Positions 15,691-43,503 are shown, counted from the first letter of the stretch. The stretch is 64,000 nt of DNA from Dictyostelium discoideum (GCA_000004695.1 CM000153.2:2752001-2816000), one strand, 5' to 3'. Notes: generated by a model from the sequence alone, not told the origin. Numbers and translations: made by a program.

Positions 15691-15975
15691 ATGCAGGATT
15701 GGGTAGCGGCAACCTGTAATCAAGCGATGCATTCGAGGCGAGGACGAGAGCATTGTTAGGACCTTTGGGACAAGCGACGCATACAGTTGATCCACACTAA
15801 CGTTGGTGTCGACATACTATCAGTCTCTAAGGATTGAAAGTAAGTTGATAATGACCAAGTCAAGGTCCAGGCTGGCAACAGAGCAGACAGAGCGAGGCAC
15901 ATCGATGGGTAGCGAGGAAAGTCGACTTAAAGTCGTCCAAAGGAAATAACAATGTAAACTCGAACAAACCTTTTT
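15691..15975 (+). ncRNA. Candidate signal recognition particle RNA (7SL/SRP RNA), about 285 nt, ending in a T14 run
   Basis: This is a GC-normal island in AT-rich DNA with no ORF. The 5' part GGGUAGCGGCAACCUGUAAUCAAGCGAUGCAUUCGAGGCGAGGACGAG resembles the SRP Alu domain (GCCUGUAAUCCCAGC...GGGAGGCNGAGG). The 3' part CAGGCUGGCAACAGAGCAGACAGAGCGAGGCAC resembles the helix-5 return strand of metazoan 7SL (CAGCCUGGGCAACAUAGCGAGACCCC). A Pol III-type T-run terminator sits at 15971-15984. The exact ends are uncertain. Confidence 0.55.
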
Positions 15976-23826: not shown

Positions 23827-24929
23827 TATTTTTTTGTTATTTAGTATCAGTTAGAGATTAATCTGAATTGAGTTGTAGTTGATTTTTTTTAAATTTCAAC
23901 TATCCGATGTATCTAACTTCATTGATTTTATACGCAGCCAAGTTTTCCCAACCTTTGTCATACTGACTCGACCTTTACATTTTCCGACCTTTCGGCAAGT
24001 TGATGAATTGGTTTCTTTGTCGTTTTTTAGTATGAGCTTAGACTATTTCTGTTACCTGACCATTACATTGTTTGTAATTTCCCCCCTAGAGATTTTCGCG
24101 TACTCAGACCTTCCCATATTATTCTCTCTTTATGATTTTAAAAATTTGTGAGAGATTCCTTTTTTTAATGATTGCCATTTGTTGAATATTACATTGGTTT
24201 CAAACCAATACCAAATAATCAAAATAAAATACCCCATTGACATTTGATTTTGTGATGACTTTTGTGGAAATTTTTCAAAAACGTAAAAAATTTTATGGGA
24301 ACAATCAATTTTTTTTTTTTTTTTTTACTAAAATAAAAAAAAATAAAAAAAATAAAAAAAATATTTTTTAAAAAAGTGTGGAGATGATTATGGTGAAGTT
24401 ATTTAACAGTTTTTATATTGGTTGGTGCAATGATAAGTGATTAAAAAGAATTTGGTAAAAAAGTTATTAATGAATCTTTTTTTTTCAAAATAAAAGAATA
24501 AAAAAAAAAAAAAAAAGAAATTAAATTTTTTTTGAATTGGAAAAAAAAGAAATTAAATAATTATTGAAATAATAAAAATAATAATAATAATAATAAAATT
24601 AAATAATAAAATTAATGTATATTTTTTTTTCCCTATTTAATCTTTGAAATATCAAATAAACAAACAAGTTTTTGTATATAAAATATCTATTTATCTATTG
24701 TTTTTATTATTTTCTTTTATTACCAAATCAATTTTATTTTTTTAATTTTTTTATTATTTTTTTATTTTACAAGATATAATTTTGAATCTATAAATAAATT
24801 AATTGTTTTAAAATTATTTTATAAATGTAAATTTGAAAAAAAAGAATTAAAAAGAGTTTTTGAAAAATGCCCAATTGATGAATTAAAATTTAAAATTAAA
24901 GATTTAAAAAATTCATGTATTTCAATTAT

Positions 24930-36465: not shown

Positions 36466-36686
36466 ATGGATAATTTAAAGGAAATAAATAATGATAAATT
36501 ATTTTTTAAAGTTTTTAGAAATATTTATTTAAAAATGGTTATATTTTATCATATTAAATTATTAAATTATTATGAAATTAAAGATAATTATACATTTACA
36601 ATAGAACAATTTCAATCATTTAAATTTAAAGATCATTTATTAAAGTTAAGATTAATAGAACCAATACAAAAATTAGCAGCAGCAGC

Positions 36687-36724
<38 letters not shown>

Positions 36725-38220
36725 ATAATTATTATACAAAAGGTGAACTTTCAAAATTAATACCAAATTCAGTTAAAAGTTTATCAATAGATATTAATAA
36801 TCAATTAGTAGTTGGTGATATAAAAGATGGTTTAACAAGTTTAAAATTTGGTAAAAGATTTGATCAAATATTAACACCAGGATTATTAGTAACGGATGGT
36901 TCATCATTGGTTGAGTTTAATTCAGGTAGTGCATTTAGGAATGGTGATTTAGATTTACAAGTTGGGTCAATACCTTCATCTATTAAATCATTAACATTAG
37001 GTCACAGTTTTAATTCAGTTATTAATGAAAATGTTTTACCAGAAGGATTGGTAAAATTAAGATTTAAAGGATTTAATAAAATGATTGTAAGGAATTCTTT
37101 ACCAAATTCATTATTGGAATTGGAATTTGGTAGAAATTTCAATAGAGCTATAAGTGCGCATGGAACATTACCAAAATCATTGACATCGCTAACGTTGGGT
37201 ATCCACTTTACCCATGTTATCCATATTGGTACTTTACCACCAACACTAAAGAAACTAATTATTCAATCGGTTGGATATAATCAAAAATTTGAAAAAAAGG
37301 CATTACCAGATTCATTGGAGCATTTGGAGTTCAATAAAAATGGGTTCTTTAATCAACCAATTGCTGATAAATTTTTACCACCAAATTTGAAGACTTTGAT
37401 TCTTCCAAAACAATGGTCAAATAATTATGAACCAATTCTAGCACTCCAATTACCAATCAATTTAACTGATTTACAATTTTACTCGAATGAATGTTCTTTA
37501 TTTTTACAAAATGATTCAATACCATCAACAGTTTTAAATTTGAGGATTAATGGTATACTTGGTAATCATTATAGTTTTACAAGGGGTGCTAAAAGGTTAC
37601 AAGGAAATATTATACCTCCATCTATTACCTCTATTGAAACTGGTACGGTTATTAATCTTTCACATTGTATAAATTTAAAGAATTTCAAATTTGATGAAAG
37701 TTTTGATCAGAGGTCTCTATCAAAAGGTTATATACCATCAACTATAACAAATTTAAAACTTCCACCATTATGGAATAGAGAATTGGTATGTGCTAATGGT
37801 TTTGATTTATTTCCAAATTGTTTAAAATTTTTAGATTTAGCATCTTATAATTATCCAATTGGTGAAAATGTTTTACCACCAAATTTAGAATCATTAATAA
37901 TTAATAGTTGGAATTTACCAATTGAAAAAAATACATTACCTCAATCTATAACTTATTTATCAATGAAATCATTCAATCAAAGATTAACTCCATCATCTTT
38001 ACCAAAAAATTTAAAAACTTTAATTCTTCATAAATATAATGTATTATTAGTACCAAATTGTTTCCCACAATCAATTAGACTTATAAAACTTGGTTCAATC
38101 TTTGAAAGAAACAATATCCTATATCCATTCAATAATAATGTTACAATTATATTTGGTAAAAATGATATTAATTTTCCAATTTATCCAAAATTTGAAAATA
38201 AATTACGTTGTAGTGCATAA
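36466..38220 (+). CDS. FNIP-repeat-containing protein (Dictyostelium-expanded FNIP repeat family), about 584 aa
   Basis: Tandem ~22-aa repeats with the FN(I/L)P signature occur throughout: ..LKFGKRFDQILTPGLLVTDGSSLVEFNSGSAFRNGDLDLQVGSIPSSIKSLTLGHSFNSVINENVLPEGLVKLRFKGFNKMIVRNSLPNSLLELEFGRNFNRAISAHGTLPKSLTSLTLGIHFTHVIHIGTLPPTLKKLII... The likely start is the ATG at 36466 (MDNLKEINNDKLFFKV..). The track ORF start at 36358 lies in a poly-T/poly-F leader and is probably spurious. Confidence 0.8.
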
Positions 38221-38282: not shown

Positions 38283-39622
38283 TCATTTTAATGGTTCTGG
38301 ATTATTAAAATGTGTTTGAAATCTATTAATTAATAAATTATTTGATTTTAATATTCTTGATATAAATGAACCAAAATTTAAATTTGAATTAATTTGAGTT
38401 AAACCATCTTTTGGACCTAGTGATAGACTAATGATTGGTGGTAATAATTTATGTTTTGCAAGTTGGTTTTTATTTTTACCATTTGATAAATCTTTTATAA
38501 CTTTAGCTACTATATTCCCATGTGAAAGTGCATTGTATGTGGTTTTAAGTTCATCAAAATCTGTAATATCACCAATTGCAAATATATTATCGTATCCTTG
38601 AACTTGACAACTTTGATTAACTTTAATTTGACCAATTTCATTAATTTCATTTGAAAAATTAGTTTTATAAGATTCACTATTTAATTTAATACCAATTGTC
38701 CAAATTACAAAATCAGATTCAATTGATAACCCATTTTTAGTTTTATATGTTTTTAATGAAACTTGAAAATTTGGTGATGTTTGATTAATAAAACATTGTT
38801 TTATATCATCTGGAATTTCAATTCTATCATTTAATATAACTGAAACGTTTCTTTTTTTCATAGATTCATTAATTAAATTATTGAATTTATTATTTGTTTT
38901 GGATGATACTAATTTATTACCACTATGAACAATCGTAATTTTCTTTGCCAATTCTTTGTTTTTAATTGGATATTTATTAATAATTTCTCCAACAACTTCA
39001 CAACCTACTGAACCACCCCCAACTATTAATATACTTTTAGCTTGTTTAATTTGTTCTGATATGTCTTTATAGTAATTAAAAATTTCAGTACCTGATATTT
39101 TTTCTAATGGTGCTTTAAAAGGTGCCAATGAATTTGAACCAGTTGCAATTACTAAATAATCAAATGTTAATTCTTTACCATCTTCTAATTTTACAAGAGT
39201 TGGTGAAATTTCAATAACTGTACCATAAATAAATTTACCATTTTTCAATAGTTTATCATATGGTATATATATTTTTTTTGCCAATTCTGGTTCAACTATT
39301 GCTCTTATTGATGCAATACTATTAAAAAATGTTTGTTTTCTTTCAACAACAGTTACTTCAAAATTTGAATCTAATAATTTTGCAACTTGGCTACCTCCAA
39401 AACCACACCCAATTATTAAAACTCTTTTCTTTTCACAATCTCTTGTAATACTACTAAAATAATTAAAAATCTCTATTAATTTAATTAAAATAATATAAAA
39501 AAAAAAAAATTAATTATCTATTTTTTTTTTTTTTTTTTTTTTTTTTATTAATTAAAACAAATTAAATAATTTAAATATATTTTACTTTTTAAAGATTCTG
39601 AAATATTATAAAGGTAATTCAT
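38283..39622 (-). CDS. AIF/AMID (FSP1)-like FAD/NAD(P)-dependent oxidoreductase, paralog A, 2 exons: complement(join(38283..39472,39586..39622)), about 408 aa
   Basis: Exon 1 is ATGAATTACCTTTATAATATTTCAGAATCTTTAAAAA (MNYLYNISESLK), ending at donor A|GTAAAA in phase 1. Acceptor AATTAATAG joins exon 2: KIFNYFSSITRDCEKKRVLIIGCGFGGSQVAKLLDSNFEVTVVERKQTFFNSIASIRAIVEPELAKKIYIPYDKLLKNGKFIYGTVIEISPTLVKLEDGKELTFDYLVIATGS...ILIVGGGSVGCEVVGEI...FAIGDITD.... This contains two GxGxxG Rossmann motifs and is roughly 65% identical to the downstream paralog 42340..43503. The track ORF begins at an internal TTG. An in-frame upstream stop at 39510-39512 forces the intron model. Confidence 0.7.
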
Positions 39623-40018
39623 TTTTTAATAAAAATGAATTATATAAAATAAATTTATATAAACTATTTAGGATTATGATGTGTTGGAATAAAGATTAAG
39701 ATTAAGATTGATATTTTTTTTTTTTTTTTTTTTTTTTATAAATGGCATTTAAACATTTTAACAAGCAAGAATTACGAAATTAAATTAAAAATAATTTTTT
39801 TTTTTTTTTCATTATACCAAAGGGTGTTGCCAAATCAGAATTATGAAACCAAAAAAAAAAAAAAAATCTTAAAAAATTGTAAAAAAATGCATTCCATTTT
39901 AGAAGAGAAGAATAGAATTTTCTATTTGATTTTTTTTTTCCTTTTATTGATAATGGATTATTGTTTTTAATAATTATCTTATGAAAGATTGATTCTTAAA
40001 AAAGTTTTTTTTTTTTTT

Positions 40019-40146
40019 TATTCACCTGTTAAAACAATTTAATTTTACACAAAAAAAAAAAAAACTGGGCTAACTTTTTAATTTTTTTTTTTTTTTTTTT
40101 TATTCACCTGTTAAAACAATTTAATTTTACACAAAAAAAAAAAATA
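40019..40146. repeat. 47-nt direct duplication ttattcacctgttaaaacaatttaattttacacaaaaaaaaaaa (40019-40065 and 40099-40145)
   Basis: Two near-identical copies separated by about 35 nt, immediately upstream (in plus orientation) of the ncRNA cluster. Confidence 0.6.
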
Positions 40147-40175
40147 TTTCCTTTGGGCTTGTTCCATAAAATCAA

Positions 40176-40239
40176 AAGGACAGTTGACGAAGTTTTTCTT
40201 TGAATGTAAGGAAATGTTAGATTTGCTGTAAGGTCAACT
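40176..40239 (-). ncRNA. Class I RNA gene (Dictyostelium Class I ncRNA, about 64 nt)
   Basis: The minus-strand transcript is AAGUUGACCUUACAGCAAAUCUAACAUUUCCUUACAUUCAAAGAAAAACUUCGUCAACUGUCCUUUU. The 5' GUUGAC pairs with the 3' GUCAAC, and the conserved 11-nt Class I motif CCUUACAGCAA follows the 5' stem strand directly. A short T-run lies at the 3' end. A DUSE-like ACCCAAAA sits about 90 nt upstream (plus 40327-40334, reverse-complemented). Confidence 0.65.
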
Positions 40240-40434
40240 TATAATGTGATTACTTTTATATTTTTCACATTTTAGTTTTAATAACAAAAAATATAAAATT
40301 GAAAACATAAAAATAAAAAATAGGATTTTGGGTTCCACTTTGTTCTCATTAAATAAAAAATTTGTTTCTTTTTTTTTTTTTTTCAATTTTTTTTTTAAAT
40401 TTTTTTTTTAAAATTTTTTCATTTTTTCCCGAAA

Positions 40435-40442
40435 ACCCATAA
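40435..40442 (+). promoter_or_regulatory. DUSE (ACCCATAA) about 60 nt upstream of the 40497 ncRNA gene
   Basis: Exact match to [AT]CCCA[CT]AA at the canonical distance. Confidence 0.5.
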
Positions 40443-40496
40443 AAAGTTTTTATCAACCAAAAACTCCATTTTTAATTGAAATTCTAACATATGTTT

Positions 40497-40755
40497 AATG
40501 GGCATATCAGGACATCGAGTTTAACACCTATTCAGACTCCAGAATACAAATTAATTTGAGCGGCAACGTTCTTATCAATCTGCAATACTCATATCATCTT
40601 AGAGGAATGATTGAAAAATCATAATTCTGATGGAGTACAAAAAATGCTGAGAAGTAACAGCATTAAAATAAACATTTAGACTATAGTTGTGAGTCTTAAA
40701 TTCCAACCAGTCAGTAGTGGCTAAAAATCTACAAAACATAAACTCGATCTGATAA
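40497..40755 (+). ncRNA. Unidentified ~260-nt non-coding RNA gene (GC-normal, DUSE-like upstream element, T-run terminator); box C/D-like motifs, possibly a U3-like snoRNA
   Basis: There is no ORF. A DUSE-like element lies at about -60. Transcription would end at the T-run TTTTTTATTTTTTTT (40756-40771). It contains UGAUGG and GCUGAGAAG motifs and a terminal CUGA about 10 nt from the 3' end. Its first ~110 nt recur as an inverted copy at 41221-41332. Confidence 0.45.
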
Positions 40756-41149
40756 CTGAAATGTCTTTTTTATTTTTTTTTTATTTTTTTTTTTTAATAA
40801 TGATTACAGTAATGATGTGACAACATCCCTATTTATAAAAACAAAAACAGTATTATATACAACAGATCACCTGTCCTCCCAATAAAAGAAGTTTAAAAAA
40901 AAAAAAAAAAATTATTATAACTATAAACAACATTCGATAGAATATAAAATAATAGTAAATTTGGGTATAAATAACAATAATAATAAATAATATTTACATC
41001 AAATTTAATATTTATTTATTAATTATTAATTAATGTTTATTTTAATATTTAAGCTATTAAAAAAAAAAATAAAAAAATAAAAGAAAAAAAATTATTTAAT
41101 TATTATTTTTTTTTTAAACACTGATTAATCAATGGATATGTGAATAATA

Positions 41150-41332
41150 AAAATAAAATAAATTTGTCAAATGAGATTATGTTCGGAGCACTGAATCTGG
41201 AATACAGTAAAGTTTGCACCTAATTCCTCTGACGATAGAGGAGTGCAGATTGATAAGAATGTTGCTCAAATTAATTTGTATTCTGGAGTCTGAATAGGTG
41301 TTAAACTCGATGTCTTGATATGCCCATTTTAA
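41150..41332 (-). ncRNA. Inverted partial paralog (pseudogene?) of the 40497 ncRNA gene; the first ~110 nt are about 95% identical, then diverge
   Basis: The reverse complement of 41221-41332 aligns with 40497-40607 (atgggcatatca[g/a]gacatcgagtttaacacctattcagactccagaatacaaattaatttgagc...ttatcaatctgca). There is no DUSE at -60. A T-rich stretch lies at the minus-strand 3' side. Confidence 0.4.
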
Positions 41333-41526
41333 GTATATTTAAAATTAATTTGTTAGTTATCTTATAATTTGATTAACTTTTTATGTGTGTTTAAAAAAAA
41401 AAAAAAAAAGAAGAGAATAAAAAAAAGTTAAATTTTGTTTAACAATCAATCCCAAAAATTATTTTTTGGTTTTTAAATTCTGAAAAAAAACAAATTTTAA
41501 TTTTATTTTAAAATGTGAAAACAATT

Positions 41527-41583
41527 AAGTTGACCTTTAAGCAACTTTCTACATTCAAAGAAATCCTTCACCAACTGTCTTTT
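41527..41583 (+). ncRNA. Class I RNA-like gene (variant motif CCUUUAAGCAA; possibly a degenerate paralog)
   Basis: AAGUUGACCUUUAAGCAACUUUCUACAUUCAAAGAAAUCCUUCACCAACUGUCUUUUUUUU. It shares the 5' AAGUUGACC and the 3' AACUGUC+T-run with the two canonical Class I genes nearby. A DUSE-like TCCCAAAA lies at 41450-41457. Confidence 0.5.
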
Positions 41584-41774
41584 TTTTAATTTTATATTAT
41601 TTTTTTTTTTTATTTTTTTTTTTATTAATAACTTTTCCTTTCCATCATCTAATTTTTTGATTTACTTAATGTAAATTTGTGATTCTTGAAGGAAAAAATA
41701 GGATTTTTGGTTATTTAAAAAAAAAAAAAAAAAATCTTAATTATTTTTTTGATAATTTAATAAGAAAATAAAAA

Positions 41775-41814
<40 letters not shown>

Positions 41815-41820
41815 ATTCTG

Positions 41821-41828
41821 TCCCACAA
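41821..41828 (+). promoter_or_regulatory. DUSE (TCCCACAA) upstream of the Class I RNA gene at 41915
   Basis: Exact consensus match about 90 nt upstream of the mature 5' end. Confidence 0.45.
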
Positions 41829-41914
41829 AATTATTTTTTATATAATATTTTTTTAATAATTAATTTTTTAATTCTTTTTTTTAATGTGTAAAACATTTAA
41901 GTTAACACATAATT

Positions 41915-41980
41915 AAGTTGACCTTACAGCAAATCTTACAATTTCATCCTAAGAAAAAATACAGTCAACTGTCTTTTTTT
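41915..41980 (+). ncRNA. Class I RNA gene
   Basis: AAGUUGACCUUACAGCAAAUCUUACAAUUUCAUCCUAAGAAAAAAUACAGUCAACUGUCUUUUUUU. The terminal stem is perfect (GUUGAC/GUCAAC), the conserved motif CCUUACAGCAA is exact, and a T7 terminator follows. Confidence 0.65.
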
Positions 41981-42234
41981 AAATTTTTTTTTGGGATAAC
42001 CATTATTACCTCTCGTTTTAAAAACCAAAAAAAAATGATTTGGTTGGATTGTTGTATCTTTTTTTTTTTTTAATGTCAAATTTGTATTTTTAAATAAAAT
42101 TAAAAAAACAAATAAAATAATCCAAGATTTTAAATTAAAAATAATAAAAATAAAAAAATTAATAAAGGTAATTTAAATTTTATATTTCATAAACTCATTA
42201 ATCCTATTTTAAAATAAAGATATAGACAATTTTC

Positions 42235-42265
<31 letters not shown>

Positions 42266-42339
42266 TTTTAATATACTTAATAAATAATTTTTATTTTTTT
42301 ATTTTTATTTTTATTTTATTTTTTTTTTTTTTTTTTTTT

Positions 42340-43503
42340 TTATTGGATTAAAGGTTTTGGATTATTTAATTGAGAAATATAACGATCAATAAATAATGAT
42401 TTTGATTTTATCATTTTTGTAGCAAAAGAACCAAGACACATAGTTGGACTGATTTGAGTTATACCATCTTGAGGACCTAATGAAAGACTAAGTATTGGAC
42501 CTGATACTTTATGTTTTGCAAGCTTATCATTACTTTTACCTTTAGATAAAGCATCGATTGCTTTTGCTGCAATTGCAGCATGATAGCCAGCATTATATGC
42601 TGTTTTAAATTCATCAAAATCTGTACAATCACCAATAGCAAATACATTATTGTATCCTTGAACTTGACAGCTTAAATTTACTTTTAATTGTCCAGACTCA
42701 TTGATTACATTTGAGAAATGTGATTGATATGATTCACTATTTGTTTTAATACCAACTGTCCAAATTATTAAATCTGCTTGAATTGGTACACCCTTTTCAG
42801 TTGTATAATTTTGTGATGATATTTGAATATTTGGTGAAGTTTGATTTAAAAGGTTAGCTTTAATTTCATCTGGCATTGTAATTCTATCATTTAATATGAC
42901 TTCAACATTTCTCTTTTTCATTGCTTTTGAAACGACATTTGTAAATTTATCATTCATTTTTGGATTCACTAATTTACTACCACTGTGAACAATTGTAATT
43001 TTCTTTACCAATTCTGAATCTTTAACTGGATATTTCTCTACGATTTCCGATACCAATTCACAAGCAACTGCACCACCACCAACTATTAATATACTTTTAG
43101 CTTGTTTAATTTGTTGTGAAAAGTTTTGGAAATAATTTAAAATCTCACTACTACTTTTCTTTTCTAATGGTGCTTTAAATGGTGCCAATGAATTTGAACC
43201 AGTTGCAATTACTAAATAATCAAATGTTAATTCTTGACCATCTTCTAATTTTGCAAGAGTTGGTGAAATTTCAATAACCGTGCCAAAAATAAATTTACCA
43301 TTTTTCAATAGCTTATCATATGGTATATAAATCTTTTTAACTAATTCTGGTTCAACAACAGCTCTAACAGATCCAACACTATGGAAAAATGTTTGTTTTC
43401 TTTCAACTACAGTTACATTAAATTTTGAATCTAATTGTTTTGCAACTTCACAACCACCATAACCACCACCAATTATTAATACTCTTTTCTTTTCTGATGT
43501 CAT
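42340..43503 (-). CDS. AIF/AMID (FSP1)-like FAD/NAD(P)-dependent oxidoreductase, paralog B, single exon, 387 aa
   Basis: MTSEKKRVLIIGGGYGGCEVAKQL... has an N-terminal GxGxxG motif. A second dinucleotide-binding motif (ILIVGGGAVACELVSEI) and the C-terminal FAIGDCTD motif are typical of the AIF/AIFM2/NDH-2 family. It is strongly similar to paralog A at 38283..39622, which lies in the same orientation. Confidence 0.85.
   Translation of the reverse strand: MTSEKKRVLIIGGGYGGCEVAKQLDSKFNVTVVERKQTFFHSVGSVRAVVEPELVKKIYIPYDKLLKNGKFIFGTVIEISPTLAKLEDGQELTFDYLVIATGSNSLAPFKAPLEKKSSSEILNYFQNFSQQIKQAKSILIVGGGAVACELVSEIVEKYPVKDSELVKKITIVHSGSKLVNPKMNDKFTNVVSKAMKKRNVEVILNDRITMPDEIKANLLNQTSPNIQISSQNYTTEKGVPIQADLIIWTVGIKTNSESYQSHFSNVINESGQLKVNLSCQVQGYNNVFAIGDCTDFDEFKTAYNAGYHAAIAAKAIDALSKGKSNDKLAKHKVSGPILSLSLGPQDGITQISPTMCLGSFATKMIKSKSLFIDRYISQLNNPKPLIQ

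Follow-up and report, generated by a model that had tools for sequence, protein, structure and literature searches.

Tandem FSP1/AIFM2-type oxidoreductase genes of Dictyostelium discoideum and the divergent 5' end of one copy

Two neighbouring genes in a 64,000-nucleotide stretch of chromosome 4 of Dictyostelium discoideum AX4 (GCA_000004695.1 CM000153.2:2752001-2816000; hereafter the window, with a G+C content of approximately 20%) encode similar oxidoreductases and differ at their 5' ends, which raises the question of how one copy, paralog A, obtained an N-terminus that the other, paralog B, does not have, and what this N-terminus may do for the protein. Both genes are located on the minus strand of the window, in tandem and in the same orientation. 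In the present study, we lean towards the interpretation that A and B are tandem FSP1/AIFM2-type oxidoreductases that reduce quinones with reduced nicotinamide adenine dinucleotide (phosphate) (NAD(P)H), that A would be tethered to lipid droplets or membranes by a derived amphipathic helix, and that B would be free of such an anchor. Both genes are already annotated and named in D. discoideum AX4, on chromosome 4; the observation of the pair is correct and not new, and its re-derivation validates the gene-model reasoning, the gene pair itself adding nothing to the catalogue. No functional study of DDB_G0285003 (A) or DDB_G0285005 (B) was found in the literature searched.

Gene models and enzyme family of the pair

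Paralog B (DDB_G0285005; 42340..43503, minus strand) consists of a single exon, which is read as one open reading frame (ORF) from 43503 to 42340 and encodes 387 amino acids (aa) with the N-terminus MTSEKKRVLIIGGGYGG. An in-frame TAA is present two codons 5' of its ATG, and, as a first-pass annotation of this locus had claimed, the protein starts directly before the first Rossmann strand. Paralog A (DDB_G0285003; 38283..39622, minus strand) was proposed in the same annotation to have acquired a 37-nt first exon and a 113-nt intron, and this exon-intron model is that of the public gene, which is reviewed and uses the ATG at 39622. Exon 1 (39586..39622; ATG AAT TAC ... AAA A), the sequence of which is unique in the window, begins with the ATG at 39622-39620, has a TAA two codons upstream, and encodes MNYLYNISESLK and the first base of K13. 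The intron (39473..39585; GTAAAA...AATAG) has a G+C content of 3.5% versus 24% for exon 2 (38283..39472, with the stop codon at 38283-38285). It contains the TAA at 39510-39512, in frame with exon 2, that had been considered to make an intron necessary; this TAA is real, and no ATG is present between it and the Rossmann motif of A. A contiguous AUG-started ORF is therefore impossible for paralog A, which appears as a 333-aa TTG ORF solely under the bacterial start rules of the ORF listing. Splicing gives a product of 408 aa with the N-terminus MNYLYNISESLKKIFNYFSSITRDCEKKRVLIIGCGFGG, and the A-specific extension continues into exon 2 as residues 14-28 (IFNYFSSITRDCEKK; 39426..39470, minus strand), which have no counterpart in B.

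The spliced A protein is letter-identical to XP_639988.1 and UniProt Q54NS9 ("AIF homolog A"), and the dictyBase span of DDB_G0285003, chr4:2790283-2791622 (1340 nt), is equivalent to window positions 38283-39622. The names of this gene clash, with aifA in UniProt and aifC in dictyBase. The B protein is letter-identical to XP_639989.1 and UniProt Q54NS8 ("AIF homolog B").

Regarding the enzyme family, the two proteins share 68% of residues over 382 positions with zero gaps, which corrects the previous figure of approximately 65% and leaves the paralogy intact, and their nucleotide identity is 79%. Both contain the Pfam domain Pyr_redox_2 (PF07992; E 6.5e-39 for A and 1.4e-39 for B), and a Pfam search detected no AIF_C domain in either. 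In a phmmer search against the sequences of the PDB, FSP1/AIFM2 was the best match for both paralogs (E 1e-46 to 1e-60), followed by NDH-2 (E ~1e-8 to 1e-10) and AIFM1, which aligned over part of the chain only (E ~1e-7), and database homologues carry FSP1 names. With 45 homologues as input, AlphaFold gave a model of A with a predicted local distance difference test score (pLDDT) of 91.7 and a predicted template modelling score (pTM) of 0.88. When this model was compared with known structures using Foldseek, FSP1 structures occupied ranks 1-5, with template modelling scores (TM-scores, target-normalised) of 0.90-0.93 and identities of 28-33%, while NDH-2 (~0.7) and AIFM1 (~0.6) followed behind. 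A and B belong to the FSP1/AIFM2 type, two-Rossmann flavoproteins of ~370 residues related to NDH-2, and are closer to FSP1 than to AIFM1, NDH-2, or other branches of the family; the description of the pair as tandem, same-strand AIF-family/FSP1 (AIFM2)-type paralogs was borne out by the domain, sequence, and fold matches.

Membership in true AIF (AIFM1) was also considered for the two proteins and was rejected, given the lack of AIF_C, a match of E ~1e-7 to the core only, and lengths of just 387 and 408 aa.

The motifs that define FSP1 are GXGXXG for the binding of flavin adenine dinucleotide (FAD), GXGXXGXE and WXXG for NAD(P)H, and GD for FAD (PMC10643123). All of these are present in A, as GCGFGG, GGGSVGCE, WTIG, and AIGD, with the following positions on the minus strand. 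In GCGFGG (residues 34-39; 39393..39410), G34, G36, and G39 are invariant or nearly so in the 45 homologues; in GGGSVGCE (residues 164-171; 38997..39020), E171 aligns with the motif Glu of FSP1; and AIGDI (38565..38579), which includes D314, ends in Ile, the residue at this position being Cys in B and in human FSP1. A motif scan of B, also on the minus strand, gave GGGYGG (residues 12-17; 43453..43470) and GGGAVACE (43057..43080), in which the third Gly is replaced by Ala, together with WTVG and AIGD. The difference between GCGFGG in A and GGGYGG in B, which had been pointed out previously, exists in the sequence, whereas a functional change does not follow from it because GCGFGG fits GXGXXG; its interpretation as a damaging change was rejected on the same ground.

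In human FSP1, the catalytic and proton-relay residues are E156, E160, D285, and K355 (PMC10643123). By position, they would correspond to E171, E175, D314, and K388 of A, with E171 and D314 taken from the motif definitions. E175 is four residues past E171, as E160 is past E156 in human FSP1, and Lys388 (38346..38348, minus strand) is within a KS..L segment of A that is aligned to KSRDL of FSP1, by which it would be the equivalent of K355, the residue assigned to proton transfer (PMC10643123). None of the 45 homologues differs at E171, D314, or K388, and at least 90% of them keep E175. NAD(P)H:quinone (coenzyme Q; CoQ) oxidoreductase activity is suggested for both A and B from their sequences, and a published predictor assigned the Enzyme Commission number EC 1.6.5.9 to Q54NS8.

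Origin and possible turnover of the 5' end of paralog A

Paralog B, all B orthologues, and the single gene of D. purpureum start directly before the first Rossmann strand, which argues that the extension was derived in A, and its earlier description as an acquired feature was upheld on this basis. In neighbour-joining trees of the coding sequences, A and B each formed a clean clade and D. purpureum fell outside the two, the conversion tract described below being the exception, and this topology implies that the duplication is younger than the D. purpureum split. Sequence comparisons date the duplication to after that split but before D. discoideum, D. citrinum, and D. dimigraforme diverged from one another. 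A and B cease to be homologous at the fourth codon of B, where ATG ACA TCA of B is opposite AGA GAT TGT of A. B would represent the ancestral form, in which the protein begins immediately at the first Rossmann strand, and A appears to have lost the ancestral start codon and to have taken its N-terminus from new upstream sequence, namely, the 37-nt ATG exon, a short intron rich in A and T, and the first 47 nt of exon 2 (two bases and 15 codons).

The gene structure was compared among seven genomes, consisting of AX4 and six further loci: D. citrinum (L001), D. dimigraforme (L002), the D. cf. discoideum strain FIZ (L004), and three D. discoideum-clade strains with an ATG in exon 1 (L005, L006, and L007, the last of which is labelled D. 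cf. discoideum). All six further loci have the B-then-A tandem flanked by a PRA1-family gene and an FNIP-repeat gene. The 37-nt exon 1 block, GT, and AG are kept in 7/7 genomes, and the intron is 113-157 nt in length and barely alignable; mean pairwise identity was 0.62 in the 60 nt upstream of exon 1, 0.95 in exon 1, 0.53 in the intron, and 0.87-0.89 in the next coding stretches. Homologous splicing yields one open frame of 408-412 codons in every genome, and read-through of the intron meets stops in six of the seven. Four of the 37 columns of exon 1 are variable, one being the third base of the ATG and the other three resulting in L/F, I/L, and S/T replacements, and 18 of the 47 columns are variable in the exon-2 part of the extension. 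These sequence comparisons provide good support for the exon-intron-exon structure of paralog A.

Synonymous divergence between AX4 and L005 or L006, both of which are labelled D. discoideum, was 0.08-0.09 in the A and B coding sequences. This value seems high within one species and may reflect cryptic species or local effects.

A gene that has lost its start codon may be a decaying duplicate, and the AGA GAT TGT now found at the ancestral ATG position of A, the absence of a start codon in some relatives, and the ad hoc first exons that annotation pipelines gave there would be in line with a pseudogene. On the other hand, the ORF is intact in the seven genomes, the catalytic residues are invariant, and pairwise ratios of nonsynonymous to synonymous substitution rates (dN/dS) were 0.15-0.26 among A orthologues and 0-0.17 among B orthologues; A evolves faster than B, yet is under clear constraint. 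The mRNA of DDB_G0285003 showed log fold changes of -4.86, -4.48, and -4.76 at 4, 5, and 6 h of development, and Q54NS9 was quantified by mass spectrometry and was down after 5 h of development, with a protein FCmean of -1.0 (PMC6830349). The possibility that paralog A is an unexpressed pseudogene, which the first-pass annotation had named as grounds for abandoning its view, does not agree with an mRNA and a protein that are both detected and regulated. The pseudogene reading was rejected for D. discoideum on the expression and selection data, and we regard it as barely credible.

The start codon is the unstable part of this gene. Exon 1 opens with ATG in AX4, L005, L006, and L007, with ATA in FIZ, and with ATT in both D. 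citrinum and D. dimigraforme (the orthologues of 39620-39622 are at L004:7175, L001:8187, and L002:7962, respectively), and no in-frame ATG is present further 5' in the exon-1 frame of any of the seven genomes. The ORFs of the three ATG-less lineages are still under purifying selection, and annotation pipelines gave these species fused genes or different first exons. A single intronic ATG that is in frame with exon 2, is followed by an open frame, and would encode a Phe-rich hydrophobic N-terminus is present in FIZ and likewise in D. dimigraforme; in mononucleotide shuffles, the chance of such an ATG per intron was 2.7% and 8%, and none was found in the four ATG-bearing genomes or in D. citrinum. 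Turnover of the start codon, initiation at near-cognate codons, or retention of the intron may explain the intronic ATGs.

These findings bear on an explanation in which exon 1 owes its conservation to a non-coding function, as a core promoter, initiator, or 5' untranslated region element, with the ATG at 39622 being incidental or lineage-specific and translation starting at a near-cognate codon or, in some species, at an intronic AUG of unspliced RNA. Exon 1 is more conserved than the adjoining coding sequence (0.95 and 0.87-0.89) even though its first codon is ATA or ATT in three lineages under purifying selection, and the open intronic ATGs of FIZ and D. dimigraforme, at the shuffle frequencies given above, point in the same direction, as does a TATA-like block (TTTATATAAATTTATTT...; 39637..39665, minus strand) just 5' of exon 1. 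This block is conserved in six genomes amid poorly conserved upstream DNA and is the probable core promoter of paralog A; its distance of only ~15-45 nt from the ATG implies that the leader would be very short. Conversely, four genomes, AX4 among them, have the ATG in A-rich surroundings, preceded by a stop two codons 5' and with no other ATG in reach, and this ATG is also the start of the reviewed public model; furthermore, the frame remains intact after homologous splicing in all seven genomes, and the three other variable sites of exon 1 give the amino acid replacements listed above. We consider a purely non-coding role of exon 1 to be unlikely, and the ATG at 39622 is presumed to be the start in AX4. 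Of the N-terminus previously proposed for A, the spliced model stands, with a lower degree of certainty, as the exon-1 ATG is not conserved in the closest relatives.

In contrast to their ends, the interiors of the two genes share a tract of approximately 190 nt, which corresponds to residues 80-142 of A (39084..39272, minus strand) and residues 58-120 of B (43144..43332, minus strand) and was delimited on each side by identity to the other paralog and by tree topology. Nucleotide identity between A and B is 92-98% in this tract, with third positions being 100% identical over alignment codons 101-130, and the two genes group by species within it and by paralog outside it. The tract is kept nearly identical between A and B by gene conversion. 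Taken together with the unstable start codon, it provides a small, clean example of young tandem duplicates that diverge at their ends and are homogenised inside.

Putative membrane targeting of paralog A

The function of animal FSP1 requires N-myristoylation, or membrane attachment, and a Lyn11 tag rescues the myristoylation-deficient G2A mutant (PMC10643123). The myristoylation motif MGXXXS (PMC10643123) is absent from both Dictyostelium proteins, with A beginning with MNYLYN and B with MTSEKK; neither has Gly2, and so neither would be N-myristoylated. Since MGXXXS is a feature of the animal lineage, its absence argues for another mode of anchoring and not against homology.

In the AlphaFold model, residues 2-21 of A, encoded by exon 1 and the exon-2 part of the extension, form a helix. 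On a helical wheel, Tyr3, Leu4, Ile7, Leu11, Ile14, Phe15, Tyr17, Phe18, and Ile21 are on one face, with Asn, Ser, Glu, and Lys on the opposite face, and the hydrophobic moment of 0.53 (Eisenberg scale) or 0.61 (Fauchere-Pliska scale) was reached by 1-5 of 20000 shuffles. Human FSP1 has been reported on lipid droplets, the endoplasmic reticulum, and the Golgi, and AifC, the product of paralog A, is described in a passage of PMC5612234 that cites Du et al. (2013) as having co-purified with lipid droplets of vegetative cells. The approximately 28 new residues of A are suggested to form an amphipathic helix with an aromatic and aliphatic face, and the role predicted for this helix is that of an anchor, which would tether A to lipid droplets or other membranes and stand in for the N-myristoylation of animal FSP1. 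In growing cells, tethered A may then restore a quinone antioxidant to its reduced form at the surface of lipids, and B, without such an anchor, is probably soluble or recruited differently. The different targeting of the two copies that the first-pass annotation had suggested is plausible in this form, towards lipid droplets or membranes, given the amphipathic helix and the co-purification of AifC as relayed in that passage, whereas its mitochondrial example is not favoured.

Several points weigh against the tethering of A by this helix. The confidence of the model is only moderate over residues 2-21 (pLDDT ~66), and the ATG is replaced by ATA or ATT in three related lineages. Amphipathicity is weak in D. 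dimigraforme, which indicates that the exact N-terminus of AX4 is not a conserved solution. An exact look-up of the 408-aa product in assembled transcript contigs gave no match, and the RNA-seq and mass spectrometry evidence found for A is at the level of the gene. The lipid-droplet claim for AifC is second-hand, and the underlying peptides might be shared with B. Furthermore, lipid-droplet preparations can carry mitochondrial contaminants.

Another explanation is that the extension is a mitochondrial presequence, in which case A would be a mitochondrial AIF-like protein and B cytosolic. The N-terminus of A is a positively charged amphipathic helix with a net charge of +3 over 29 residues, which is the general shape of a presequence, and the list of genes down in development in which A appears also includes several whose product names are mitochondrial. 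However, the first 22 residues contain no Arg, Glu9 is present, Asp24 and Glu26 are next, and the hydrophobic face consists mostly of Tyr, Phe, Ile, and Leu; moreover, the family is FSP1 and not AIFM1, an AIF_C domain is lacking, and the sole localisation report, as given in the source cited above, is for lipid droplets. A mitochondrial presequence appears quite improbable and less likely than a lipid-droplet or membrane anchor.

The extension might also be translated and have no targeting role, either as a neutral by-product of the loss and rescue of the start codon or as a modulator of activity or oligomerisation. The fast evolution of its exon-2 part (18 of 47 columns variable), the apparent use of different N-termini in different lineages, and a model confidence below that of the rest of the protein are consistent with this explanation. 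They need to be set against an amphipathicity in AX4 that is far above that of shuffled sequences, the hydrophobic nature of the alternative N-termini of relatives, the requirement of membrane attachment for the function of animal FSP1, and the lipid-droplet co-purification of AifC, insofar as the second-hand account holds. On balance, we do not expect the extension to be without a targeting role, and a membrane anchor remains the reading that we prefer.

A broader scenario, which we regard as conceivable and rather doubtful, is that turnover of the start codon at the 5' end of paralog A would have made a membrane anchor out of junk AT-rich DNA. Once the ancestral ATG was gone, different dictyostelid lineages would have recruited different starts: D. 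discoideum the ATG of a mini-exon, with splicing; FIZ and D. dimigraforme an intronic ATG, with read-through of T-rich sequence that codes for Phe; and D. citrinum perhaps a near-cognate AUU. Each of these would give a hydrophobic or amphipathic N-terminus that replaces the myristoyl anchor of FSP1 and puts a CoQ reductase on lipid droplets.

Surroundings of the locus and comparison with known systems

The spacer between B and A is 2.7 kb in AX4 and approximately 0.4-0.6 kb in D. citrinum and D. dimigraforme. An Rfam scan identified two Dicty_Class_I_RNA genes in divergent orientation in it (55.5 and 51.2 bits), at 40181-40238 (minus strand) and 41917-41971 (plus strand), and comparisons using Rfam and BLAST, the latter run on the spacer with dust low-complexity masking, revealed a third, degenerate Class I copy at ~41526-41584 (plus strand), in which the conserved CCUUACAGCAA motif is mutated. 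Rfam also places Class I genes at the corresponding position in L004, L005, and L006, the other D. discoideum-complex strains scanned, whereas none was found at the loci of D. citrinum and D. dimigraforme. The spacer also contains a conserved element of approximately 265 nt (~40497-40762, plus strand), which is 85-94% identical in four other strains, with a DUSE-like (Dictyostelium upstream sequence element-like) ACCCATAA at 40432-40439, approximately 60 nt upstream, and a truncated inverted copy at 41223-41346; L007 has two full inverted copies. A long terminal stem is predicted for the element, which also has UGAUGA/CUGA-like boxes and a 3' T-run, matches no Rfam family at E<=1, and was found in D. 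discoideum-complex strains and not in the D. citrinum or D. dimigraforme loci. It is a candidate for an unclassified non-coding RNA gene.

Closer to paralog A, the spacer 5' of the gene contains a perfect 58-nt direct repeat (40005-40062 and 40087-40144; 82 nt apart), consisting of TTTATTCACCTGTTAAAACAATTTAATTTTACAC between runs of T and A. A motif that recurs at 39740-39860, upstream of A on the gene strand, was recognised by eye as CATAATTCTGAT(T/C)TGGCA / (C/T)ATAATTCTT; it is conserved 5' of A in D. citrinum and D. dimigraforme too, and the opposite strand of exon 1 of paralog A has a related GATTCTGAAA. From their sequences, these motifs are possible transcription-factor sites. On the other side of A, the FNIP-repeat protein gene (36466-38220, plus strand; PF05725, E 3e-67) is convergent with it, with approximately 60 bp between the stop codons, and this neighbour is present in all related loci. 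Elsewhere in the window, Rfam identified the RNA of the signal recognition particle (Dictyostelium_SRP, 320 bits; 15691-15968, plus strand) and the nuclear RNase P RNA (62.6 bits; 23846-24136, minus strand), which, together with the Class I genes, make the window rich in non-coding RNA genes, while a tRNA scan of the 64 kb detected none.

Among known systems, AIFM1, to which the "AIF homolog" names go back, has the Pyr_redox_2 core in common with A and B but matches only in part (E ~1e-7, TM-score ~0.6), and A and B have neither its AIF_C domain nor its long N-terminal mitochondrial import region. NDH-2 of Staphylococcus aureus and C. thermarum and yeast Ndi1 share the superfamily and mechanism and provide the second-best structural match (TM-score ~0.70), whereas their sequence similarity is much weaker (E ~1e-8 to 1e-10). 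NDH-2 proteins are respiratory-chain enzymes with membrane-binding C-terminal elements of their own.

The closest relative is animal FSP1/AIFM2, an NAD(P)H:CoQ/vitamin K oxidoreductase, which has the fold, the best sequence match, the FAD and NAD(P)H motifs, and the catalytic Glu and Lys in common with A and B. Lipid-droplet association is reported for animal FSP1 and, in the second-hand account cited above, for A. Unlike animal FSP1, both Dictyostelium proteins lack MGXXXS, and A has a 28-residue extension with a predicted amphipathic helix that is partly encoded by a mini-exon; A also has GDI in place of GDC, and B has GXGXXA in its NAD(P)H motif. By analogy with the animal enzyme, a role of A or B against lipid peroxidation in Dictyostelium is putative. 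The engineered human Lyn11-FSP1(G2A), in which an unrelated N-terminal membrane peptide replaces myristoylation, resembles what is proposed for A; as its tag is artificial and lipidated and not an amphipathic helix, it serves as an analogy only. Dictyostelium FSP1-type enzymes without a myristoyl anchor, one of which has a recent amphipathic N-terminus and, according to that account, has been found on lipid droplets, represent a modest lead, and the pair offers a tractable system in which to ask how FSP1-like quinone reductases reach lipid surfaces and whether defence against lipid peroxidation predates animals.

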